Below are positions 4,330 through 61,391 of a stretch of DNA of 64,000 nt, in pieces. The notes under the pieces were generated by a model. The model was not told where the DNA came from. It was given only the letters and a program-made list of their open reading frames with translations, and searched no databases. A program made the position numbers and the translations under genes. Every line of letters begins with the position of its first letter. Position 1 is the first letter of the stretch. The stretch lies in the sequence record PZ229304.1; one strand, written 5' to 3'. Origin of the DNA: a phage.

Positions 4330-5445
4330 GTGGCACATACATATCTAGCTGACGTAGACTTTTCGGGTAAAGCTACGGAAGATTCTTGCGGAGCACACAT
4401 TGCTTACACCTTCGATTTTCAAGGTGGTGCTGCTTCTGGCTTTAATACCCCTCTACTTTTTAAATCTGGCGACAACCCAGACATTAGCTTCACTAAGTTA
4501 GAAGCTCTAGAAAAAATGGGTGAAGACGTTACTGAATTACGTAAATCATATATGAACCAACTTATGGGATCATTATCTGATGCCGTTCGTGAAAAATACG
4601 AGTCTGGTTGGGATTGGGTTTATGTAGTCGATGCCGATTTTGATAATGGCATTGTTATTTTCTGTTCTGACTACGGAATGTTCTCTACTGATTTTACCAT
4701 TAACGGACTTCTTGTTGAAGTTGGTGATGTTGCAAAACCAGTAGTACAAACAACGGACTATGAAGTAGTAGACGGTGATGTTTTAGTTTCCCTGGATTTC
4801 TTTGATAACTTGATTGATGATGCTCTAGGTGATTTAGTTAAGAGCGCAATTAAGTTTGATCACGTAAAAGATTATTTAGTAAAAGCTCACGAAGCTCGTA
4901 CTAATAAAGACTCTGTGATTGCAGAGGATAATCCAGCAGATCTTGAATCTGCAAACACAACCGATATAAATAAAGGAGATACCCCTTTGGAAAATATTAA
5001 CAAAGAAGAATTCCTGAAATCTGCTGAGGTGCAAGACCTTATTAAAGCACAGATTGCAGAAGCGGTAGAAAAAGCTGCTGCTGAAGCTCGTGCAGAGGCA
5101 GAAGCTAAAGCACAGGAAGAAATCAACAAAGCTAAGGCAGAAGCCGAGGAACTTCGTAAAGCAGAAATTGCTCGTATCGAAGAAGACTATACCAATGTAA
5201 TTAAGTCTTATGGCTATGTTGAAGAAGACAAAGTTGAAGCACTTGTTAAATACCTAGTAGATAACAAAGAAATTGCTGAAACTGTTGTTACCGCATTTGA
5301 AAAAGCTCGCGAAGAAGTTGAAACAGTTAAGAAAGAATTTGGCAAAGAAGTAGGTGTTGATGTTGAAAACAAAGAACCTGTTGCTAAATCTGCTTCTGAA
5401 CTGATTCGTCAAAAAGCTGCTGAACTTAAAAAAGCCCAGAAATAA
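4330..5445 (+). CDS. scaffolding protein
   Basis: 371 aa; C-terminal half is Ala/Glu/Lys-rich predicted coiled coil (AEAVEKAAAEARAEAEAKAQEE...); located between portal and major capsid genes. Confidence 0.5.
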   Translation: MAHTYLADVDFSGKATEDSCGAHIAYTFDFQGGAASGFNTPLLFKSGDNPDISFTKLEALEKMGEDVTELRKSYMNQLMGSLSDAVREKYESGWDWVYVVDADFDNGIVIFCSDYGMFSTDFTINGLLVEVGDVAKPVVQTTDYEVVDGDVLVSLDFFDNLIDDALGDLVKSAIKFDHVKDYLVKAHEARTNKDSVIAEDNPADLESANTTDINKGDTPLENINKEEFLKSAEVQDLIKAQIAEAVEKAAAEARAEAEAKAQEEINKAKAEAEELRKAEIARIEEDYTNVIKSYGYVEEDKVEALVKYLVDNKEIAETVVTAFEKAREEVETVKKEFGKEVGVDVENKEPVAKSASELIRQKAAELKKAQK

Positions 5446-7876: not shown

Positions 7877-8364
7877 TGAAATGTGAGATCACACGTGGCG
7901 ATGATATGTCGTTAGATGAATATTTTAGTAAAATGCTGGCTCTAGATAATATAGAAATAGATGCTGGTTTTCTTACTGCTGTTCGCCATCCAGAATCAGA
8001 TCTCACTATCCCTGCAATTGCTGCCATACAACAGTTTGGTAATGAAACAAACAATACTCCTGCACGTCCGTTTTTAACGGACGGTGCAGTCCACGCCAGT
8101 AAAGAAATACCTAAGCATTTTGATGAAGTGTTTAGAAATTATTTACTTCGTGGAAGGGGTTTAGCTGCCTTTGAACCTATTGCAAAAGTTTCACGAGAAT
8201 CTATTGCTAAAGCGATTGCTCTGCAACGTTATAGACCGTTATCTCCTGTGACTATTAAAATCCGTAGAGATAAAGGTAACTACTCTTCTCATATTCTTAT
8301 TGATACTGGACATTTAATTAACAGTATCGAATCAGAAATCAAGAAGGGTCGTTCTAAAAAATAA
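7876..8364 (+). CDS. neck / tail completion protein (hypothetical)
   Basis: 162-aa ORF; position only. Confidence 0.3.
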   Translation: MKCEITRGDDMSLDEYFSKMLALDNIEIDAGFLTAVRHPESDLTIPAIAAIQQFGNETNNTPARPFLTDGAVHASKEIPKHFDEVFRNYLLRGRGLAAFEPIAKVSRESIAKAIALQRYRPLSPVTIKIRRDKGNYSSHILIDTGHLINSIESEIKKGRSKK

Positions 8365-8365
8365 C

Positions 8366-8394
8366 TTGCAATAAGTCTGTTTTTGATGTATACT
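8366..8394 (+). promoter_or_regulatory. sigma70-like promoter
   Basis: TTGCAA - 17 nt - TATACT, followed by a GGAG Shine-Dalgarno and the ATG at 8409. Confidence 0.4.
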
Positions 8395-8408
8395 AAAAAG
8401 GAGATACA

Positions 8409-8825
8409 ATGCTATTAGACCAATTTACTCTCCTTGATCTAACAACGTATCAGGGTCGTAAAAGAACCTATGTTCAAGATCCTGATTCGCCAATTTCCAA
8501 TATGGGTAATACAGTAGCATACGAAGACTTTACAATAGAGGCTGCAAGTTTGCAACCAATATCAGGTAGAACACTTCAAGCACTGCCAGAAGGATACAGA
8601 TCTAAGGCACAATATAGCTTCTGGACAAAAACAGAAATCAGAGGCATCCAGCAAGGATCAGATCAATTATCTGACCAAATACTAATAGATGGACAATGGT
8701 TTTCCATTTATTCTTTGAAAGACTGGACAAGAACATCTTTCTTAATACACACACATTGTGTTGCTATTCTAGATGACCAGAATAACACCTATTCATATTC
8801 TGAGGAGGGTGGTAATTTTGGCTAA
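8409..8825 (+). CDS. structural protein (hypothetical, neck/tail terminator region)
   Basis: 138-aa ORF with good RBS; position only. Confidence 0.3.
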   Translation: MLLDQFTLLDLTTYQGRKRTYVQDPDSPISNMGNTVAYEDFTIEAASLQPISGRTLQALPEGYRSKAQYSFWTKTEIRGIQQGSDQLSDQILIDGQWFSIYSLKDWTRTSFLIHTHCVAILDDQNNTYSYSEEGGNFG

Positions 8826-50611: not shown

Positions 50612-51121
50612 TTAGCGATAGAATTGATGTTCTTTGTAGCGGTACACTAGAACCATATCTTTTTCCCAGTGTGCTCTTATTGTAGATTTTTTAAAGTATA
50701 ATGCTCCTTTTGTAATATCTAATGCAATTCGTAATTCTGGAAAATGCGTATCGAGATAAAGTAGACGTTCTGCTATAGCCTTAGCTTCCTTCCACTTATC
50801 ACGTTCCATAACGTTGAATGTCTTTGTGTAAGAGAATTGTCCTTTTTGAAACAAAACTTCTTTTATAGTATCAGGGAAATATGAATCTCTAGCCCTATTC
50901 AATACTACATTACCAACAGCAGACATACCGCGCTTTCCTTGATTACGACTTTCTGCATAGATTGCACAAGCTAATAGATTTTCTTTACTATCACGCTTTG
51001 TACACTTGTGAACTACTTTAGCAGTTTTTACGTTTGCAGCTTCGGCTTGCGCCACAACAGGTGTAAATGTAAAAGCAGTTAAGGATAGTAACGCAATTGC
51101 GACAAAGGTTTTTATTGACAA
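50612..51121 (-). CDS. secreted SleB-like cell-wall hydrolase (candidate endolysin)
   Basis: 169 aa; N-terminal signal peptide MSIKTFVAIALLSLTAFTFTPVVAQA; AIYAESRNQ...GMSAVGNVVLNRARD matches the SleB / Hydrolase_2 family. Confidence 0.5.
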   Translation of the reverse strand: MSIKTFVAIALLSLTAFTFTPVVAQAEAANVKTAKVVHKCTKRDSKENLLACAIYAESRNQGKRGMSAVGNVVLNRARDSYFPDTIKEVLFQKGQFSYTKTFNVMERDKWKEAKAIAERLLYLDTHFPELRIALDITKGALYFKKSTIRAHWEKDMVLVYRYKEHQFYR

Positions 51122-51213: not shown

Positions 51214-51816
51214 TTAGATATTGTAAACCTTTGTATGAGTTACTACACCATTTTCTACAAAATCAATACGTTCTTGATCCGTAACTAGTGCAGACAACAC
51301 TTTAAATTTAATTTTTACACGTTCAAAAGCTGGTTGACCATCTTTAAGATAATTATGTTCGGTTGTCACTGTCTTGTTTACAAAATCAACTTTTGCTTTA
51401 CCGTTTTCGCGTAGGTGGAATGTTTTTCCTGCTTTGTACACAATTTCAACATTACCTTCGAGAGTAATTCCTTCAAAAAGTTCACCCTCTTCTTCATTTT
51501 CTTCACTTTTGAACAGACGACGAAACTCTTCCATATCAAGATAAACAACATCTTCAGAATAACTATCAGTAAGATATGTCTTACCCTCCATCAACCCGAA
51601 ATATTGCCAGATTGCCGAATAAACATCACTAGATGATCCAAGGGTTTCTCTGAGTTTAGTTCCACGGATTACTTCATAAACTTCAAAATTGAAACCAGAC
51701 TGCAAAGCATCAAACAGCACATCACTAACTTCTAAAGCATAATCTTCATTGTTGTCAATATCTACAAGAAAATTGCCGCTACGAATAAGTTTTTGACCTT
51801 CTAAAGTAATACTCAT
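51214..51816 (-). CDS. hypothetical protein
   Basis: 200-aa acidic ORF. Confidence 0.3.
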   Translation of the reverse strand: MSITLEGQKLIRSGNFLVDIDNNEDYALEVSDVLFDALQSGFNFEVYEVIRGTKLRETLGSSSDVYSAIWQYFGLMEGKTYLTDSYSEDVVYLDMEEFRRLFKSEENEEEGELFEGITLEGNVEIVYKAGKTFHLRENGKAKVDFVNKTVTTEHNYLKDGQPAFERVKIKFKVLSALVTDQERIDFVENGVVTHTKVYNI

Positions 51817-51843: not shown

Positions 51844-51859
51844 GCGCCCCGAAGGGCGC
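51844..51859 (-). terminator. hairpin downstream of TerD-like gene
   Basis: GCGCCC-CGAA-GGGCGC stem-loop with AT-rich flanks. Confidence 0.35.
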
Positions 51860-51880: not shown

Positions 51881-52477
51881 TTACTCGAACCAATCGTCGC
51901 CAGCGCCAAACGCTTTAACTACATCGTAAATGTCAAGCCCAGCTTTACCTACACCATATGCTTTCAGTTTCCATTCGCTATCTTCTCGCACCAGGGAGGC
52001 AACGTGGCAAATGGTGTTACCTGCAAGTTCTGGAGCCAAGAAGTCAAAGTCCAGCAGTTCAACATTACGTTCATCATCGAAGATTTTAAGGAAACCTTCG
52101 GTAGCGTGACCAAGGCGTTTCTTACCCGTTTCGTCATCAATAGTAATTACGAATGCAATTTCCTGTGCTTCAGCAGAGATATTATCCAGTGTAACATCAA
52201 TCTGCTCCATCTGTCCTACACCATCACGAACATCTTCACCTGCAAAAGTAGAACGTTCAGGATCAAATTTCTGCGCGTAGCACACCAGGTGACGAGGAGA
52301 CAACAGTTCCGGCAGACCAGATGCATTGTGTCGGCAAATCAGAGCACTAACATCCAGATCCAGTTTTTCGTTAGATTTCCAAGAGAATTCCAGACGAATG
52401 CGTTTCAGTGCTGGTGCGATCTTTTTCAGAGAAACTTTTTCGCTAGAACCTTTTTTCAGGGAAATTTTCTGAGTCAT
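51881..52477 (-). CDS. terD: TerD-family protein (tellurite-resistance / stress-response family)
   Basis: 198 aa; N-terminal MTQKISLKKGSSEKVSLKK is the typical TerD start; acidic Ca-binding-like segments (FAGEDVRDG, ITIDDETG). Confidence 0.6.
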   Translation of the reverse strand: MTQKISLKKGSSEKVSLKKIAPALKRIRLEFSWKSNEKLDLDVSALICRHNASGLPELLSPRHLVCYAQKFDPERSTFAGEDVRDGVGQMEQIDVTLDNISAEAQEIAFVITIDDETGKKRLGHATEGFLKIFDDERNVELLDFDFLAPELAGNTICHVASLVREDSEWKLKAYGVGKAGLDIYDVVKAFGAGDDWFE

Positions 52478-52549: not shown

Positions 52550-53344
52550 TTACGCTTTTGCTCCGAATTTTTTAACCCACTCACCAAACTCTTCGGATAG
52601 CAGTTTATCGTAAAGTTCTTCGTCAGACAAGGACAAATCTGCAATACCGATAAAATCAACATTATCGTATTCTTTTGCCAAGTCTTTCAAGAATTTAAAG
52701 TTTGCATTACCTACACCAACCATAAACCAGTAAACAGGAGTGTTGCGGTGTTTGTTCAGCAAACTACGTACTGCTGAAGTATCCATGTTCTCCCCGTCAG
52801 TTTGGAAGAAAATCATTGCAGGAGTACGATCAACTTGTGCATCAGTATCTACAACCTGCTCTACAACAGTACGTGTTACTTCTACAAGTTCTTTTTTACC
52901 AGTTAGTTTAGCAAGGAAACCTTTAGCCGGAACTTCTTCATACTCAACGACTTCGCGTGTAATATTTTTCATAGGTACACTACCGAAGTATGTATCATAG
53001 ATCTCTTGCATTACTGGAGCATAGGCTGTACCACCGTTGATGCAAACATTAGACATGCAAGAGCCGACATAATCATCATACACATCAGCCGTTGCAGGAG
53101 GCAGTTCAAAAGAAGAACTATTGAAAGCCCACATGTCAATCTGTGCATTATCATCAAACTTCATACCAAACGGCAGCAGTTTACCTACAAAATCACTAAC
53201 AGTGCCATCACGATATAGCTCACACATACTACCCGAAATATCTAAGGCGCTACCGACACGAAGAACAACATCGTTAATCTTTTTCTTACGCAGAGATACA
53301 GTAAGAGTTTCTTGACGTTTTTTAAGACTGATTTTATTGGACAT
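52550..53344 (-). CDS. vWA-domain protein with TerD-like N-terminal tag (TerY-like)
   Basis: 264 aa; N-terminal SNKISLKK; MIDAS-like LDISGSM and downstream TDGEN motifs. Confidence 0.55.
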   Translation of the reverse strand: MSNKISLKKRQETLTVSLRKKKINDVVLRVGSALDISGSMCELYRDGTVSDFVGKLLPFGMKFDDNAQIDMWAFNSSSFELPPATADVYDDYVGSCMSNVCINGGTAYAPVMQEIYDTYFGSVPMKNITREVVEYEEVPAKGFLAKLTGKKELVEVTRTVVEQVVDTDAQVDRTPAMIFFQTDGENMDTSAVRSLLNKHRNTPVYWFMVGVGNANFKFLKDLAKEYDNVDFIGIADLSLSDEELYDKLLSEEFGEWVKKFGAKA

Positions 53345-53345
53345 A

Positions 53346-53615
53346 TTATTTCTCCTTTCTGACTATAATGTTAGTAACTTCTAAATCCACTTCTACCACT
53401 TCTGTATCATATAAAATACAGTTAAGTTGACCTCTTTGTGAACCGTTCAGACACATTGCTTGGTTTGTATTAACCTTAATAAACACTAAGTTTATGAACG
53501 TATCTAAACCAGAATCTTGATAGGCAACATAATATACGAATGTATCACCTGCGTCAAGTTCTCCAAAACATTTAGGTTCATCTGATTTGTCGTCTTTGAT
53601 GTTAAATTTAAGCAC
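53346..53615 (-). CDS. hypothetical protein within Ter-like module
   Basis: 89-aa ORF in operon context. Confidence 0.3.
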   Translation of the reverse strand: MLKFNIKDDKSDEPKCFGELDAGDTFVYYVAYQDSGLDTFINLVFIKVNTNQAMCLNGSQRGQLNCILYDTEVVEVDLEVTNIIVRKEK

Positions 53616-54171
53616 TGTCTTCTCCTTTACCTGCTCTCAAGCCTAAATAGAAAGCCTCTCTGGTGATCTTTTGCAACTCGTTTAAAGCGATAGTTACAAC
53701 TAAATCATCTTCAATTTCTAGCTTTGAGTCTTCTTCTGTCTCAATGCAAGTATTATGCACTTTGTGGTAAGGATTGTCAACACGTTTAAATTTATTATTT
53801 TCAGTGCTGAAGAAGCAATCTGGATCTTCTTCCCCATCACCCAAACCCTGGTTAGGATCTTCTTCAGATCTTTCTGTTGGGATCTCACCTGTAAAGTGCT
53901 CTTCTAATACCAGAGCAATCCCATCTCCAAGATCGGAAGAGAACATCAAATTACAAACTTCTTCCCAAGGCATAGACCACTTAAATCTTTTACGATTACC
54001 ATGTTTATCTTCTTCGTTAGAGAAAACACTACCATAGCTATCATAATTCCCATACATCTCTTCGACAACCTTACCACCTTTCAAAAGAAATAGGTAGCAA
54101 GGAGAGCCATCGAAAGAGGTAGAAAGAGCAGCATTACCAGACTCTTTGCACAAGAAACTAAAACACCCCAT
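53608..54171 (-). CDS. hypothetical protein within Ter-like module
   Basis: 187-aa acidic ORF. Confidence 0.3.
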   Translation of the reverse strand: MGCFSFLCKESGNAALSTSFDGSPCYLFLLKGGKVVEEMYGNYDSYGSVFSNEEDKHGNRKRFKWSMPWEEVCNLMFSSDLGDGIALVLEEHFTGEIPTERSEEDPNQGLGDGEEDPDCFFSTENNKFKRVDNPYHKVHNTCIETEEDSKLEIEDDLVVTIALNELQKITREAFYLGLRAGKGEDSA

Positions 54172-54371
54172 TATACACCAGCCTTAAGATCAATTAAAGC
54201 CAAAGTTGTTTCAGAGTGTGTTTGCTCGTCTACAGGTGCAGTCATATGATAATACAAAAAATCTTCGGCATCATACCAATCTGACTCTTGACCTTGTTTC
54301 CAACCATCAATGAAAGCATCTTCCATAATTGTTTGTAACTCTTCACGAGTTAAGTGAATATCTTTACTCAT
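54171..54371 (-). CDS. hypothetical small protein
   Basis: 66-aa ORF with stop/start overlap to neighbours. Confidence 0.3.
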   Translation of the reverse strand: MSKDIHLTREELQTIMEDAFIDGWKQGQESDWYDAEDFLYYHMTAPVDEQTHSETTLALIDLKAGV

Positions 54372-54604
54372 TACACATTCTCCTCTTTTACCAATTCCAT
54401 CGTTGAACTATCAAAACCATCTTTAGAAGAATAGGTATAGACAGAACGTAGTTCGCGCAGGACAGTGAATACATTAGGATCATCTAACCAAGCATCCTGG
54501 AGGAGAACATAACGATCTTCATTGTCGTACTGGACAGCAATCATAGAACCAGACAGTTTGTAAATTTTAATATTCATAATATATTTCTCCTTAAAGTAGA
54601 CCAC
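54371..54604 (-). CDS. hypothetical small protein
   Basis: 77-aa ORF with stop/start overlap to neighbours. Confidence 0.3.
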   Translation of the reverse strand: MVYFKEKYIMNIKIYKLSGSMIAVQYDNEDRYVLLQDAWLDDPNVFTVLRELRSVYTYSSKDGFDSSTMELVKEENV

Positions 54605-55694
54605 GTTTAACAGTTTGAATCATGCCATCTTCAAGAGATTGCACTTCTTGAATGTAATCAATACGAGCAGCACGGGCTTCAGTGTTGATTCGGTTAGTTT
54701 CTTCCAACATTTTAACTAAGTTTTCTTGATCACGACGTAATGTTTCAATATCCAACACTTGACGATTAGCAAGTTGTGTAGCTTCAATTTGGTTTTGTGC
54801 AGCAAGATCACTACCCATTGCAATAGCAGCATTAAATTCATTCAGTACATTGTTCTGTGTATCGGCTGCTTTCTTCTGGCGTAGACTTTCAATATACATA
54901 GAAAAGTTTGCAGAGTAAGCAGGAATAACATTATTCACAATATTACGGGCTGATCGCATCAAACTTGCAGATACTTTCTGCATACTTTGTACACGTGGCC
55001 CCATCTGAACACACAGTAAGCGTAGGGCTTTCAGGTCTGCAATACGAATTTCAAGCAGATCCATAGTATCACGAGTACGTTGACGCTCTTCTACCTCATT
55101 TTCAGGCAGTGTATTAAGGCGAACTTCTTCTTTTTCATAAGTAGCTGTTAGAAGCTCTATATCTCTGTTTAAGCTAAGAGCATATTTGGCAATAGCCTCT
55201 TCTAAACGTTGCAGATATCGTAAAGAATCTTCTTCTTTTTTCAAGTCTGTTTGGAGTGTCTTTACCAAACCTTCAATACGATTATTGATGGTGTCAAATT
55301 CTCCAAACAAATCTTCTTTCATACCTAATACTTTCTTAACTAACTTACCTAAACCTTTAGATTGTTTAATAGAATTAGGATCAAGTTGCTTTGCTTGCTT
55401 AATAAGTGCAGTTAAACGTTCACTCATTTCATCTCCCTGAGATGAACGCTGGTGTTTAAGCACTTCAGCATTAAGGTTACGAAGAGTAAGTCCTGCATCA
55501 GCACCAACCTGTTCAATCTCTTCACGAGACATTGGAGGCAGCATTTGTACAGGTCGTGCAACAGCAGGGGCATATACAGGACTTGCATCCATAGCAGTTG
55601 GAGCAAACAAAGACTTACTTTTTTCTGTTGTTGCCGTGAATACACTCATTTCAGACGGTTTGCTTTTTACGGCACTGATAAAAGGACTGGACAT
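54591..55694 (-). CDS. TelA-like (toxic anion resistance / KlaA-like) protein, putative
   Basis: 367 aa, predominantly helical coiled coil; size and operon context with TerD/TerC; no discrete motif verified. Confidence 0.4.
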   Translation of the reverse strand: MSSPFISAVKSKPSEMSVFTATTEKSKSLFAPTAMDASPVYAPAVARPVQMLPPMSREEIEQVGADAGLTLRNLNAEVLKHQRSSQGDEMSERLTALIKQAKQLDPNSIKQSKGLGKLVKKVLGMKEDLFGEFDTINNRIEGLVKTLQTDLKKEEDSLRYLQRLEEAIAKYALSLNRDIELLTATYEKEEVRLNTLPENEVEERQRTRDTMDLLEIRIADLKALRLLCVQMGPRVQSMQKVSASLMRSARNIVNNVIPAYSANFSMYIESLRQKKAADTQNNVLNEFNAAIAMGSDLAAQNQIEATQLANRQVLDIETLRRDQENLVKMLEETNRINTEARAARIDYIQEVQSLEDGMIQTVKRGLL

Positions 55695-55762
55695 TCAATT
55701 TCCTCCATATTCTTTAGTAGATGGTGATACCTCTGTACCACCATCATAACACAAATTAAGTA

Positions 55763-56614
55763 TTAAACAAACATATCTAAATAATTTGTAGTAATAAACG
55801 CCCCATCTGCTTCCAGATTAACATAACCAGTAGCATTAGTGGTTAAGAAATCCAGATCGAAGGACTCTTTAACACCCCGTACCTCAACACGAGAGATATC
55901 GAATACAGGTAGTGTAACAGCCTCTTCGTGCAATACCGTACCTTTGTAGGTTGCCTTAATGATAAACTTGATATTACCCGTTCCAGCATCATACAAAACA
56001 CTTTCAAACCCTTTGAGAGTATATTTATCACCAGAAGTGAAGTGCAAAGTTGCTTTGTTTACAGTACGTTTTTTACGAGGAGTTCCTTTCACACGTTTAT
56101 GATCACTACGTTTTTTGTATTTAGGAATGAATACAAACGATACACTCTCAAGAAAGGTATCAACATCAAGGATTTTAATATCCTCTGTTGCAGCAAATTT
56201 TGAAGTCGTTGCATCAAAATGCTTTTCCCTGCGATCATACATAAAGATATCAAACCGATCTTCTAAATCAAACAAATTATGTATTTTAATTTCAGAATGC
56301 TTGCGCATTGCAGCAACCTTGAACTCTTCAAAACGTGGGTGTTCTACAAGTTCTTCAAGTTTTACACCAAAGACAGTATATTGCTTCGGAGTTTTTTCTG
56401 GTGTTGGCATTACAGAAGCATAATCCCCGATTGCGCTCTTAAAGCAAAATTGTTCTTGACCTGTATTTTTACCAACGAATTTACAGTATTCGTCATCGTG
56501 CATACTTTCCTGGGTAGTACCAACAAACTCAAAACCATCTTTATTCTTCTCAAGAATTTCTTGATTAAAGATCCAACCTTCCAGGCGATACACTTTACCA
56601 ACTTCTAGTTTCAT
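55763..56614 (-). CDS. hypothetical protein within Ter-like module
   Basis: 283-aa ORF. Confidence 0.3.
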   Translation of the reverse strand: MKLEVGKVYRLEGWIFNQEILEKNKDGFEFVGTTQESMHDDEYCKFVGKNTGQEQFCFKSAIGDYASVMPTPEKTPKQYTVFGVKLEELVEHPRFEEFKVAAMRKHSEIKIHNLFDLEDRFDIFMYDRREKHFDATTSKFAATEDIKILDVDTFLESVSFVFIPKYKKRSDHKRVKGTPRKKRTVNKATLHFTSGDKYTLKGFESVLYDAGTGNIKFIIKATYKGTVLHEEAVTLPVFDISRVEVRGVKESFDLDFLTTNATGYVNLEADGAFITTNYLDMFV

Positions 56615-56649
56615 CTGTTTCTCCTTCTTATTTAATCTGTATTAAATTA

Positions 56650-57255
56650 TTAACGACGACGTGAGCTACTAAAACTACGTTTCGACGAAGAATAACTTTT
56701 CGAAGACTTACTATAAGAGCTAATAGGACTTGAGTAAGACTTACGAGCAGAGTAATCACTATTCACTTTTGTTGTTGATGGGCGTGAATACGTTTGTACA
56801 CTTTGCTGCTTAATTGTGTTTTGTTTAGTTGTTGTATATGTATTCCCTTGTTTATCATAAAAACTATGCTTTTGTGTTGTATATGCTTTACTATTAGTTG
56901 CAGGAGCAGCATTGTTATTAATAATGGTTGTATTGCTACCACCATCTCTATAACCACCACCGCCACTATTACCACTCAACATATGACCAAGAAGCATACC
57001 TGTAGCAAAGTCACCTACACCAGAAGAACCACTGCCGCCTCCTTGAACAACAACTGTTGAAGGTTGTGCAGGTGCTGCTTGAACAACTTGAGGTGCAGGT
57101 TGATTTACATATTGTTCATCTACCATCTGATTTGGTGTTTGTTGGTAACGTTGATTTTGTACATTTTCAGAATCATCACAACCTACCAGCAATGCACTAC
57201 CTAAAACAACTGCAACAATAAAAGATTTAATGTTTTTCATTTGTAACCCTCTCAT
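56650..57255 (-). CDS. lipoprotein with glycine-zipper region
   Basis: Likely start at the MKNIKSF Met; lipobox LLVGC; Gly-rich GGGSGSSGVGDFATGMLLGHMLSGNSGGGG; Ser/Asn/Gln-rich C-terminus. Confidence 0.5.
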   Translation of the reverse strand: MRGLQMKNIKSFIVAVVLGSALLVGCDDSENVQNQRYQQTPNQMVDEQYVNQPAPQVVQAAPAQPSTVVVQGGGSGSSGVGDFATGMLLGHMLSGNSGGGGYRDGGSNTTIINNNAAPATNSKAYTTQKHSFYDKQGNTYTTTKQNTIKQQSVQTYSRPSTTKVNSDYSARKSYSSPISSYSKSSKSYSSSKRSFSSSRRR

Positions 57256-57433
57256 TTAAAGTCTCAACACAATTTTTAAAATCCCTAGAGAAACAATACA
57301 TCTGCTCTCCGTTCCTGTTGATAGTAATTGTATGGTTATCAATATATGTTGTCAAGATAAAAATTAAACAAAACAACCCTAAAGCAAAACAAATATTTTC
57401 AAACAGAATCCAAAGAACACGTAAAACCACCAT
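57227..57433 (-). CDS. small membrane protein (hypothetical)
   Basis: 68 aa with one strongly hydrophobic helix. Confidence 0.3.
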   Translation of the reverse strand: MVVLRVLWILFENICFALGLFCLIFILTTYIDNHTITINRNGEQMYCFSRDFKNCVETLNERVTNEKH

Positions 57434-57472: not shown

Positions 57473-58450
57473 TTAAGCAACAGCCTGGTCTTCTTTTTCA
57501 GGGAAGATTAAACTTGCAAGAACACCCAGCCCAAGAGTACCTAACACAATATACATACTGATCGTCGGGTCAATGTGTGCTGGCAGGAAACTCATTTTTG
57601 CGTGCAGAGTTTCTGCAAACGGATGATACATCAGTTTTACACCCACAAATACCAGGACTACGATAACTGCTTTCTCCAGATGAACCAAATATTTCAGTGC
57701 AACACTAAGAACAAAGAACAGAGCACGTAAACCTAAGATTGCACAGAGCATCGAAGAGAACACCAGCAGAGGTTCTTGTGTCACTGCAATTACTGCTGGA
57801 ACAGAGTCTACTGCAAAGATTACGTCAACCATTTCCATTACAAACACACAAACCAGAGCCGGAGTTGCTACACGAACACCATTTTTGATTGTGAAGAACT
57901 TCTCACCATCCATCTGATCAGATACAGGGAACAGCTTACGAACAATGCGAGTAGCCCAGTGTTTAGAGTAATCAACTTCTGCATCATTATCTCCAGCGAA
58001 TACCATTTTAGCCGCACAGAAAAGGATGACAGCACCGAAGAAGATATTAACATACCAGCCCAAACTCAACAAGTAAGTACCTACTGCTACAAACACACCT
58101 CGGAAGACAATCGCACCTGCAATACCCCAAAGTAGAATCTTGTGTTGCAAGTGTGTGCTTTTAATACCAAAACTTGCGAATACTGCCACAAATACTACTA
58201 AGTTATCTACAGAAAGAGATTTCTCCAACACATACCCACTCAAAAACAAGCTCGCAAAATCAGCACCGTGTTGGAAGTATACAAAACCATAGTAGGCTAA
58301 TGATACCCCAATCCAGAAAATTGACCAACCAATTGCAGATTTAAATGAAATTTCTTTGTTTTCTCTGTGTCCAAAGAAATCAATACAAATCGACAACACT
58401 AAAATACCCACTAAAACAACCACATCAATAATTGGGAAACCCAGTTGCAT
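57473..58450 (-). CDS. terC: TerC-family integral membrane protein
   Basis: 325 aa, multi-pass hydrophobic; duplicated signature SLSVDNLVVFVAVF and FAVDSVPAVIAV typical of TerC. Confidence 0.75.
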   Translation of the reverse strand: MQLGFPIIDVVVLVGILVLSICIDFFGHRENKEISFKSAIGWSIFWIGVSLAYYGFVYFQHGADFASLFLSGYVLEKSLSVDNLVVFVAVFASFGIKSTHLQHKILLWGIAGAIVFRGVFVAVGTYLLSLGWYVNIFFGAVILFCAAKMVFAGDNDAEVDYSKHWATRIVRKLFPVSDQMDGEKFFTIKNGVRVATPALVCVFVMEMVDVIFAVDSVPAVIAVTQEPLLVFSSMLCAILGLRALFFVLSVALKYLVHLEKAVIVVLVFVGVKLMYHPFAETLHAKMSFLPAHIDPTISMYIVLGTLGLGVLASLIFPEKEDQAVA

Positions 58451-58527
58451 TCTTTCCTCCTCTTTAATGCGGAGGACAATCCTCCGCTCTATGTCTTATA
58501 CTATAAACTGTTTTTAAAGAAAGTCAA

Positions 58528-59006: not shown

Positions 59007-59722
59007 TTATTTCAGTTTGTAAACAATTACATTTAAACCTTTGTTCACTAGAGTTTCTTCGATCATAAGTTTTACAATATTCCAAGAACCTCCAGCCAAA
59101 CCACAACCAAGCATTGGTAAACCTACAATTTTACCGCCTGAAGATACAACATCGTCTCCCATACTATCTAACGCATTGTAGATAGCTTCATAATCCAGGT
59201 CACGCTTACCTTCCTCACGACGACTATAACCATATTGTCCATATAAATTATAAATTGTCAAATTGTTTTCTGTATACTTAGTAAACGTACCTAATTTTTT
59301 ATAATCACCACGTTTAGTGGCACAATCTGCTTTAAACGCACCAGGCCACTTGCTTTTAATTTTTGGTGCAATACCACTACCCATAGTGCAAAAACAGTTA
59401 CAGCAGTGTGCTATAGCGTCTATATCGCCTCTCTCGGCTGCTGCTAAAAGATCACCGTATACCTCAATGATACCTGCTGGATAACTTGTTACAATTTCAT
59501 CTTCCCAATACATTTTCTCTACACCACCGATCAGTGCAAAGTTTTGTGTAATGCGATCATCAATATAGTTAAGACCTGAAACATACACAGCATATTCATC
59601 CTGTGCTGTAATGCCTTGTACACGAATTCTTAAGACACCATCTTTATCTGTTGCTACGCGCCCAAAATCTTTTTCTGTAATATTGGTGATAGGATCTCCG
59701 AAAGTCATTACTTTATTAGACA
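59007..59722 (-). CDS. macro-domain-like protein (ADP-ribose binding / processing), putative
   Basis: Probable start is the MSNKVMTF Met. DAIAHCCNCFCTMGSGIAPKI and IVGLPMLGCGLAGGSW resemble the two Gly-rich macro-domain motifs. Confidence 0.4.
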
Positions 59723-60573
59723 TAATAATCCCCTTTAACATTAGATTTGTTGATAATGTTGCTTTCAAAAAATTGACGCAGGAAATCAAAGTTCTCTTTG
59801 TATTTTTCAATATTATTGTAACCTTCTGCAAGGCAACCAAAGAACAGTTGTTCTACATAATACAAAGGAAGTTGTGAAAGTGCAATTTTAAAATCAACTT
59901 CGCTTTGACTCATTAGATACTTAATAGGACGAACCAAACATTTAGCATCAGTTTCTTGCTTAATCATTTTAATAAAAGCTGCCAGGTTATTGATATAGTT
60001 GAAGTTAAGTGCAGCTTCGGTGTTGGCTTCTGTACCTTCATACTTTGCAAAGTACAGGAAAAACGTATCGTTTTCAACACCTTCTTTGTCTAAAATTTCA
60101 ATAAGTTTTTCTTCGTGTGTTCCTGTAATATTAACATCATCAATGAAAATCAGAGTTTTATTACCCCAGAAATCACGATTGATAGAGAAAGTGTCACCAT
60201 CGATCAAAGCCTTACGATCTTCTTTGCTAAGAAATCCATAATCATTGATATAACTCACTTTACGATGAACGATATCCCACTCCACTGCTTTACCTCCTTT
60301 GATAGAGATTAGGTAGTTGAGGTGATCTACAAAATGCTCAGATAACACTGTAGCTGCATTTTTCACATAATTATATGGAGATGGAATAACAACAAAACTT
60401 TCATTTACTAGTCGTTCTTCATATTTAGAAAAGAAACTTTCAGCCAGAATGCGTCCCATTCTTTTTGCTGCCTGGTTACTGCCAAACTTTAGTTTGGAAT
60501 AATCTGCAATGTTAAATTTTGCTTCCTTCAGGTTAGTAAAAGTATTAGCAAAATGTTGAATTTGATTACGCAT
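59716..60573 (-). CDS. phosphoribosyltransferase (type I PRTase fold)
   Basis: 285 aa; LIFIDDVNITGTH matches the PRPP-binding motif (hydrophobic-DD-x-x-TG-x-T). Confidence 0.55.
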   Translation of the reverse strand: MRNQIQHFANTFTNLKEAKFNIADYSKLKFGSNQAAKRMGRILAESFFSKYEERLVNESFVVIPSPYNYVKNAATVLSEHFVDHLNYLISIKGGKAVEWDIVHRKVSYINDYGFLSKEDRKALIDGDTFSINRDFWGNKTLIFIDDVNITGTHEEKLIEILDKEGVENDTFFLYFAKYEGTEANTEAALNFNYINNLAAFIKMIKQETDAKCLVRPIKYLMSQSEVDFKIALSQLPLYYVEQLFFGCLAEGYNNIEKYKENFDFLRQFFESNIINKSNVKGDYYV

Positions 60574-61222
60574 TAATAAGTTCCTCTTTTTTAAGTTTAG
60601 CCAACAAGTCTTCTGGATTAATAATATGACAGAACTTCATCCCTATGTCAACAGCTTTTCCATCATAAATCAAACTATCTCCAACGTGTAAAATCTCCTC
60701 TGGTGCGAGATCAAACGTTACCATTTCATCAAAAGAGAGTTTAAAAAACCTAGGATCTGGTTTACACAAGCAAAACTCGTCAGAAAAATGCATAAAGTCG
60801 AATGGTAATTTTGTTAAACCAGAATATACAGCTAAGAAACTACCTGGTACAAAATTAGTATTACTCTTAATACTCAAAGAGTAGGTTGAACTTAGCTCTT
60901 CCAACTTCTTGCAAAGTTCAGGATTCAATGTTGGAGGATGTTTTATAAACATTGCTAAACAGTCTCTTTTTAACCCATCCACTTTATCAAGATCAATATT
61001 CAAATGAGTAGAAAGTGTTTCCCAAGCATTCCTAGACGTTCCACAAATTCCTTTTTCTGCTTTTAAATCCAGGAGAGTTTTTACCTCTTTATATACGGTA
61101 GCTGCTTCTGCTTCAGAACAAGAGGCATACTCGGCAATAACCTTGTTGCGTTCTTCTGCATACAAAGGATTAGCAGTAATAAGAGTATTCCATACATCAA
61201 AAGAAATATGCTTAACAGTCAT
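60566..61222 (-). CDS. HAD-superfamily hydrolase (phosphatase-like)
   Basis: Motif I-like ISFDVWNTLI near N-terminus and motif IV-like VGDSLIYD; likely start at the MTVKHISF Met with GGAGG RBS. Confidence 0.5.
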   Translation of the reverse strand: MTVKHISFDVWNTLITANPLYAEERNKVIAEYASCSEAEAATVYKEVKTLLDLKAEKGICGTSRNAWETLSTHLNIDLDKVDGLKRDCLAMFIKHPPTLNPELCKKLEELSSTYSLSIKSNTNFVPGSFLAVYSGLTKLPFDFMHFSDEFCLCKPDPRFFKLSFDEMVTFDLAPEEILHVGDSLIYDGKAVDIGMKFCHIINPEDLLAKLKKEELINA

Positions 61223-61391
61223 TTTTAATCCTCCGTCCAAAAGAATATCATCTGCTTAATTTTATTGATCTCTTGATGTAGTAACTTTCCAGCATGTGAT
61301 TGATCTTTAATATTGACAGCAAGAATTTCAAGCTCCGTTAGTTTTTCCTGGATAGCTTTATATTCATCATCTGTAAGCATTTTCTTCCCCT

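Follow-up and report, generated by a model that had tools for sequence, protein, structure and literature searches.

The window analysed here is a 64 000-nucleotide (nt) stretch of phage DNA (sequence record PZ229304.1) from a phi92-like Escherichia coli myophage of the genus Justusliebigvirus, subfamily Stephanstirmvirinae. It carries a complete phage Ter module, with the four core genes TerC, TelA, vWA-TerF-like and TerD. Within it, between TerC and the vWA gene (53346-57433), lie seven open reading frames (ORFs) that are not core Ter genes. On balance we read these as lineage-specific accessory genes placed in the gaps between the four core genes, making up a mixed set and not one machine. 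Two of the products, gp180 and gp181, are predicted membrane proteins and keep company with TerC; a third, gp179, stays beside TelA; and gp175 carries a domain that occurs mostly away from Ter genes. The whole region from 51.8 to 58.5 kb is 98-99% identical to its counterpart in over 50 published E. coli myophages of the phi92-like type.

Seven genes between the core Ter genes

The preliminary description of this DNA listed six ORFs with no recognisable motif and one lipoprotein gene between the vWA gene and TerC, and all seven are found at the positions it gave, on the minus strand. They are referred to below by the phi92 gp numbers obtained by mapping to the phi92 reference record, or as A to G in the order of their coordinates. 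From the vWA end they are gp174 (A; 53346-53615, 89 amino acids (aa), phrog_11278 of unknown function), gp175 (B; 53608-54171, 187 aa, a conserved N-terminal domain and a variable C-terminal helix), gp176 (C; 54171-54371, 66 aa, with a conserved LTRxELxTIxEDAFIDGW motif), gp177 (D; 54371-54577, 68 aa, immediately 3′ of TelA), gp179 (E; 55763-56614, 283 aa, modular and soluble), the lipoprotein gp180 (F; 56650-57240, 196 aa, lipobox Cys21) and gp181 (G; 57227-57433, 68 aa, one N-terminal transmembrane (TM) helix). TelA (gp178; 54591-55694, Pfam TelA E = 5e-34, phrog_5890 tellurite resistance) is a core gene inside the interval that was missing from the earlier list. The other core genes, likewise on the minus strand, are TerC (gp182; 57473-58450, by annotation, 94% identical in Phapecoctavirus), which is the first gene of the unit, the vWA-TerF-like gene (gp173; 52550-53344, Pfam E = 1e-38), which is the last gene ahead of the TerD promoter, and TerD itself (gp172; 51881-52477, Pfam TerD E = 5e-28). 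The genes are tightly packed, as had been remarked, with gaps from TerC to the vWA gene of -14 to +68 nt.

Two of the seven starts as first given were probably over-extended. The GTG at 54604 first assigned to gp177 has no Shine-Dalgarno sequence, while the ATG at 54577 is preceded by AAGGAG; the protein appears in its 68-aa form in the PHROG, phi92 and PATM annotations, and the PHROG match begins at residue 10 of the longer form. The lipoprotein had been started at 57255; the annotated gp180 begins at the second ATG (57240) and has 196 aa.

Synteny at the protein level extends over at least three genera (Justusliebigvirus, Phapecoctavirus and that of the Klebsiella relative KP13-26), and further to two metagenomic loci, L054 and L055. 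Homologues at equivalent positions in Phapecoctavirus and KP13-26 are 29-75% identical, below the 67-81% of the core Ter proteins in the same comparison. The ratio of non-synonymous to synonymous changes (pN/pS), computed against three close relatives with small substitution counts, is 0.14-0.18 for gp175, 0-0.08 for gp176, 0-0.07 for gp177, 0.10-0.19 for gp179, 0.05-0.29 for gp180 and 0-0.12 for gp181, values that point to purifying selection on these six. gp174 is less constrained (0.36-1.0, on very few changes). Because of the synteny and the pN/pS values taken together, we regard the seven ORFs as genes and not chance reading frames. Some of the shorter ones, gp174 above all, might still be spurious or decaying frames, and the pN/pS of gp174 and its absence from KP13-26 would fit this. 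But gp174 is 49-61% identical at the protein level in Phapecoctavirus, it has paralogues, its hidden Markov model (HMM) finds a match (4e-10) beside the vWA gene of the divergent L055, and it follows a good AGGAG ribosome-binding site (RBS); the remaining ORFs all have pN/pS of 0.3 or less. We give this explanation hardly any credence. The ORFs are conserved across the Stephanstirmvirinae, and none is recorded as a structural protein.

The comparison with other phages places the set in its lineage. The four core genes adjoin one another in the Ter loci of Pseudomonas Otagovirus and of Caulobacter phages, whereas in the window they are separated by at least seven lineage-specific genes. All seven are absent from those loci, in which the HMMs of gp174, gp176, gp177, gp179, gp180 and gp181 have no match. 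On this ground the embedded genes appear to be lineage-specific insertions. The metagenomic locus L055 is divergent, with TelA 47% and TerD 52% identical, and has the order TerC-x-G-Band_7-F-E-TelA-x-vWA-A-TerD. Since gp181, gp180 and gp179 are kept there while gp175, gp176 and gp177 are absent, these three are the persistent companions of TerC and TelA.

The same evidence bears on the proposal that all seven are unrecognised Ter subunits, distant equivalents of TerB, TerA, TerZ and others. The shared transcription unit and the stable neighbour pairs gp179-TelA, gp181-TerC and gp174-vWA speak for it. Against this, the Pfam Ter families (TerB, TerC, TerD, TelA and vWA-TerF) match none of the seven at E values up to 1, the gp179 family does not align with TerD (hhalign probability 0.1%), and the Otagovirus and Caulobacter results stand as given above. 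We consider it improbable. Nor is a functional tie to Ter borne out for the whole set, given that other Ter loci lack them and that most loci with the gp175 domain are devoid of Ter genes.

Family searches agree with the earlier remark that the ORFs have no recognisable motif. Scans against PADLOC, Pfam and NCBIfam bring up nothing but sub-threshold noise (DUF2076, YjbE, DUF6693 and Cas12g), and every PHROG that is matched has an unknown function. PDB sequence searches with profiles of gp175 and gp179, and with gp180 and gp174, gave no match. All seven are labelled hypothetical proteins in the phi92-like records, with a signal peptide already marked for gp180 in that of phi92. From 2012 on, over 130 genomes have listed them as hypothetical. 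The present findings do not as yet alter the understanding of Ter systems, and no experimental paper on phage Ter accessory genes was found in the literature. Hydropathy analysis places hydrophobic or signal segments in gp180 and gp181 only, the other five (gp174, gp175, gp176, gp177 and gp179) being acidic (isoelectric points of 4.2-6.3) and without such a segment. The suggestion that these genes encode novel membrane or envelope-acting components therefore applies to the lipoprotein gp180 and the single-TM protein gp181, and is not supported for the five acidic, soluble proteins. Superinfection exclusion or envelope remodelling would be a reasonable guess for gp180 and gp181 only.

The predicted membrane proteins gp180 and gp181

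gp180 is a predicted bacterial lipoprotein. The lipobox noted earlier is present (MKNIKSFIVAVVLGSALLVG followed by Cys21) and is the only one among the ORFs of the window. The N-terminus has a positively charged n-region, a hydrophobic h-region whose core has a mean hydropathy of 2.5, and a lipobox of the form [LVI][ASTVI][GAS]C among its first ~35 residues; Cys21 is invariant in 20 family members. From this cysteine the chain continues as Cys21-Asp-Asp, a Q/P-rich linker, the segment SGVGDFATGMLLGHMLS, TTIINNN, and a basic tail rich in Ser, Tyr and Lys that ends in RRR. The invariant positions of the alignment are C21 and, within SGVGDFATGMLLGHMLS (GxxxGxxxS), G74, G76, G81, G85 and S89; D22 and D23 (at least 90% conserved) and the C-terminal RRR are nearly so. 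The glycine zipper of the preliminary description is thus real in a minimal form, G81-xxx-G85-xxx-S89 (G81-MLL-G85-HML-S89), with all three positions invariant and the surrounding segment no more than weakly hydrophobic. None of the 20 family members is matched by the Pfam glycine-zipper families, no Pfam family is found consistently, and the score against DUF2076 (16.3 bits) is below the cutoff of 38.

In E. coli an aspartate at position +2 of a lipoprotein is a Lol-avoidance signal, which is reinforced by Asp, Glu, Gln or Asn at +3. On account of its Asp at +2, gp180 is predicted to be retained in the inner membrane. The residues at the lipobox cysteine are CDD in L055 and CDS in L054. Both of these loci have a conserved gp180 homologue, and that of L055 keeps the lipobox, the CDD, the glycine motif and the RRR end. 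The family comprises 28 clusters, none of them annotated, and the longest contigs that carry it (~140-155 kb) are of phage size. In Escherichia phage ESCO13 (L004 ~8240-8689) the published annotation gives the homologue only 102 aa from a non-ATG start and is truncated, since the frame continues upstream through a lipobox, LTAC followed by EDE.

The lipid anchor and the conserved GxxxGxxx(G/S) segment of gp180 are shared with glycine-zipper lipoproteins of Gram-negative envelopes such as the SlyB/PCP 'glycine zipper 2TM' family. Unlike them, gp180 has one short zipper and not a hairpin, is predicted to lie in the inner and not the outer membrane, and is without a Pfam zipper match.

The 3′ end of the gp181 gene overlaps the start of the gp180 gene by 14 nt. 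gp181 has a conserved FENICFAxGLF sequence in its TM helix, followed by a tail of ~35 aa with two invariant cysteines. It was found in 132 phage records, all of phi92/phAPEC8 type. In the related loci L002-L004 and in L055 the gene lies just 3′ of TerC, directly or past one small ORF. For DUF6693 gp181 scores 21.5 bits, short of the cutoff of 31, and just one of four orthologues is matched. In L055 a gene for a Band_7/SPFH protein, a stomatin-like membrane scaffold, is located between the gp181 and gp180 homologues (4332-5213).

A small gene with an N-terminal TM helix that overlaps the start of a lipoprotein gene is also the arrangement of the 'overlapped' Rz/Rz1 spanins, and there is a SleB-like hydrolase gene ~5 kb downstream. 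gp181 and gp180 could on this basis be a two-component spanin, an i-spanin with an overlapping o-spanin lipoprotein, that disrupts the outer membrane at lysis. However, an overlapped spanin pair has been assigned elsewhere in phi92, at 55669-56101 and 56006-56336 (Kongari et al. 2018, PMC6139136, supplementary file 5), so the curated spanins are at 55.7-56.3 kb whereas gp181 and gp180 are at 112-113 kb of that genome. Asp at +2 and +3 predicts that gp180 is in the inner membrane, while an o-spanin needs the outer membrane. gp181 has ~35 extramembrane residues with no coiled coil and is too short, the curated i-spanins of phi92 and phAPEC8 having 143 and 130 aa (Kongari et al. 2018, PMC6139136). 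Phage phiWec190 has gp181 but not gp180, and the pair lies in the Ter operon and not in a lysis cassette. A spanin function is thus very improbable, and on the curated spanin coordinates and the +2 aspartate of gp180 it was rejected.

The soluble proteins

The N-terminal ~140 aa of gp175 form a strongly conserved domain with the pattern MGCFSFLC...GNYDSYG...DDPNQGWG...PxH. It has 132 homologues of 45-65% identity and 31 invariant positions, which include G2, C3, F4, S5, C8, GNYDSYG, DPNQG and P134/H136. The AlphaFold model is confident, with a predicted local distance difference test score of 86.8, and no fold relative of it was detected in a comparison outside AFDB. The many invariant polar residues, among them Cys3, Cys8 and His136, are the reason why gp175 may be a small enzyme or a metal-binding module.

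The domain occurs in 43 viral loci of IMG/VR. Only two of these, both Stephanstirmvirinae, have a Ter gene within 10 kb, and 41 have none. Of 72 556 plasmids a single one has it, and 185 579 species genomes yielded it on three contigs of metagenome-assembled genomes. Because 41 of the 43 viral loci are without Ter genes and almost none of the occurrences is on a plasmid or cellular genome, the domain is taken to be restricted to viruses and not specific to Ter, and gp175 would be a passenger in the Ter operon. Neighbours with DUF932, DUF3846 and DUF2958 had hinted at a plasmid leading-region or anti-defence gene, which the distribution does not support. In 20 of the 41 non-Ter loci (within L008-L050) a protein of ~125 aa (MGLDMYA...HYWRKHPNLHGWM) is encoded ~1 kb upstream of the gp175-domain gene, and is a possible conserved partner of it. 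As a well-conserved, virus-only family with a confident model and no fold relative, gp175 is a reasonable target for structural and biochemical work.

The C-terminal helix of gp175 (LNELQKITREAFYLGLRAG, 53608-53700) resembles the N-terminus of gp176 (REELQTIMEDAFIDGWKQG, 54290-54371), the similarity being weak (hhalign P = 9e-4). The gp176 homologue of phiWec190 is fused to an extra N-terminal domain of 70 aa.

gp179 is built of a putative Tudor/SH3-like barrel (1-70), an alpha/beta domain (80-162), a basic KKRxKG linker (164-180) and a beta-sandwich (185-283). The barrel gives Tudor-like matches. The set with which it was compared is that of the RNA-polymerase-interacting Tudor-like domains of CarD, CdnL and Mfd, and the N-terminus has no Pfam match to CarD_CdnL_TRCF RID. 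The gp179 gene always precedes TelA, and in some phages a SprT-like gene separates the two. This SprT-like zinc protease (HEIAH, Pfam E = 2e-9) is absent from the genus of the window and is found between the gp179 homologue and TelA in Phapecoctavirus, KP13-26 and a metagenomic relative (L002 9844-10434; L003 9345-9923; L004 9319-9891; L054 1764-2345).

gp174 is acidic, soluble and rich in beta structure, and a paralogue of it lies between the vWA gene and TerD in Phapecoctavirus and in L055; a profile comparison of gp174 with gp179 was negative. Homologues of gp177 that are 29-36% identical follow TelA in KP13-26, ESCO13 and L054.

Transcription, proposed function and related systems

A scan for sigma70-like matches in the minus-strand gene block at 44-64 kb finds just two in intergenic DNA, one before TerC and one before TerD. 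That of TerC, TTGACT-N16-TATAGT (58527-58498, minus strand), has a -35 element, GTTGAC, that is invariant in four genera; that of TerD is at 52542-52515 (minus strand). A terminator-like hairpin, GCGCCC-TTCG-GGGCGC, then ATATTT, lies just 3′ of TerD on the same strand (51844-51859). Promoter-like sites overall are not above chance (43 observed, 36 ± 6 expected), and for this reason the argument for an operon is made from the position and conservation of the promoter. With the TerC promoter at one end, the hairpin after TerD at the other and no intergenic promoter match between them save that of TerD, a single operon that includes the Ter genes is the best reading of the sequence. The preliminary description had come to the same view, and the genes are indeed co-oriented and closely packed.

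Between the TerC promoter and the TerC RBS, the 5′ untranslated region (UTR) contains a stem-loop, GCGGAGGA-TTG-TCCTCCGC (58469-58487, minus strand), the pairing of which is maintained by compensatory substitutions in relatives (the equivalents in L002-L004 and L051 were compared). The TCCTCC of its 3′ arm is complementary to the downstream GGAGGA RBS, which makes translational control through the 5′-UTR stem-loop a possibility. An Rfam scan of 50-64 kb returned nothing significant.

Upstream of TerC, profile matches on the minus strand at 59007-61240 identify a macro-domain protein, a PRTase_3 and a HAD hydrolase. The macro-domain protein has a DarG-like ADP-ribosyl glycohydrolase match (E = 1e-12) and the phosphoribosyltransferase is of Ter type (PRTase_3, E = 1e-41). 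The three constitute the 'nucleoside-like metabolite' arm of Ter systems, and the macro domain suggests a step linked to ADP-ribose. Downstream of TerD, past one ORF (51214-51816), the gene block also encodes a SleB-like cell-wall hydrolase that has a signal-peptide-like segment at its N-terminus (50612-51121, minus strand) and is distant from the curated spanin locus; the same neighbour (Hydrolase_2) is present 3′ of TerD in L055. Four GenBank records labelled 'Campylobacter phage' with the host C. jejuni (MG065645, MG065689, MG065656 and MG065650) are 97-99% identical to this E. coli lineage. Probably the host has been misassigned in them, or else these records are contaminants.

The reading of the seven genes that we favour can be put as a scheme. 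They would probably be co-transcribed with the Ter genes by the host RNA polymerase from the sigma70-type promoter of TerC. gp181 would be bitopic, with its N-terminus inside and its short tail, with the two invariant cysteines, outside. gp180 would be anchored in the outer leaflet of the inner membrane, with the GxxxGxxxS segment and the long basic tail at the periplasmic face. The two would form an inner-membrane pair beside TerC. Their likeliest role would be to modify or shield, in concert with TerC and TelA, the infected cell's inner membrane, so that for instance a second phage or a colicin is blocked or envelope damage resisted. A specific function in excluding superinfecting phage DNA or colicins is rather doubtful, though it would agree with what plasmid ter operons are reported to do, namely to inhibit phages and make cells resist colicins. 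gp179 may be a modular cytoplasmic adaptor beside TelA; gp174, gp176 and gp177 would be small acidic cytoplasmic proteins near the vWA protein and TelA, probably binding partners or regulators; and gp175 would have an independent role, possibly enzymatic or metal-binding.

Several points weigh against this scheme. What it says of function, expression and localisation is drawn from sequence only. Synteny across the subfamily covers the entire region, and so co-inheritance with Ter is weak evidence of a functional link; the linkage of gp181, gp180 and gp179 to Ter genes is seen within one phage lineage and does not recur outside it. The content of the slots varies: gp180 is absent in phiWec190, gp174 and gp175 in KP13-26, and gp175, gp176 and gp177 in L055. 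Unrelated genes, for the SprT-like protease and the Band_7 protein, occupy the same slots, a pattern that is typical of accessory 'filler'. The gp180 homologue of ESCO13 has Glu and not Asp at +2 (CED), and the glycine-rich segment of gp180 is too polar for a TM helix (estimated hydropathy ~0.5, where the threshold is 1.6).

It could accordingly be held that the seven are unrelated accessory or 'moron' genes, with roles for example in host takeover or anti-defence, that have settled in permissive slots of an early operon without any link to Ter. The differing slots of the genera would be expected on this account, as would the compact Ter loci of other phages and the gp175 domain, which for the most part has no Ter genes near it and is found among blocks of small unannotated genes. 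But gp181, gp180 and gp179 hold their exact positions by TerC and TelA in a locus as divergent as L055. Homologues of gp180 and gp179 were found on Ter-carrying contigs only, the search for gp181 being confined to these loci and the phage-genome collection. In addition, gp180 and gp181 are predicted inner-membrane proteins that adjoin a membrane protein, TerC. As an account of all seven we think it unlikely, though a serious candidate; it fits gp175 well, and gp181, gp180 and gp179 less well. A bolder version of the mixed set, in which many uncultured phages use the gp175 domain as a new enzyme or metal-binding fold confined to viruses while, separately, gp181, gp180 and gp179 are a new inner-membrane effector arm that makes Ter a barrier to superinfection and colicins, is speculative and unlikely.

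The mechanism of Ter is unclear, although Ter is widespread and tied to resistance to phages and colicins. A lytic phage that has a complete Ter module together with a lineage-specific pair of a lipoprotein and a TM protein, and a tractable host in E. coli, would be a simple test bed for TerC and TelA at the membrane.

Ter systems of bacteria were reportedly described by Anantharaman, Iyer and Aravind in 2012. Phage inhibition and resistance to colicins are traits of plasmid ter operons (Whelan 1995, cited in PMC8386662). In phages, Ter modules of TerC, TelA, vWA-TerF and TerD with a PRTase and HAD have been described, and a part in countering superinfection has been suggested for them (Iyer et al. 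2021, PMC7824862; PMC8386662). The module in the window is of the same type, in that it has the full TerD, vWA-TerF, TelA and TerC set with PRTase_3, HAD and a macro domain upstream, and the role proposed, in superinfection or envelope stress, is the same. gp180 and gp181 may also be set beside a second group of phage proteins: T5 Llp, phi80 and N15 Cor, and T4 Imm and Sp, which are superinfection-exclusion membrane proteins or lipoproteins. The likeness is that of small lipoproteins or bitopic proteins placed in the envelope, which a lytic phage would produce from a promoter of early type. In sequence gp180 and gp181 resemble no annotated family, and whereas Llp and Cor act as lipoproteins of the outer membrane by blocking a receptor, gp180 is predicted to be in the inner membrane and has a long low-complexity tail. 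The seven genes are thus best seen as a lineage-specific elaboration of a known phage module, of which the inner-membrane pair of lipoprotein and TM protein, and the gp175 domain with its orphan fold, are worth following.

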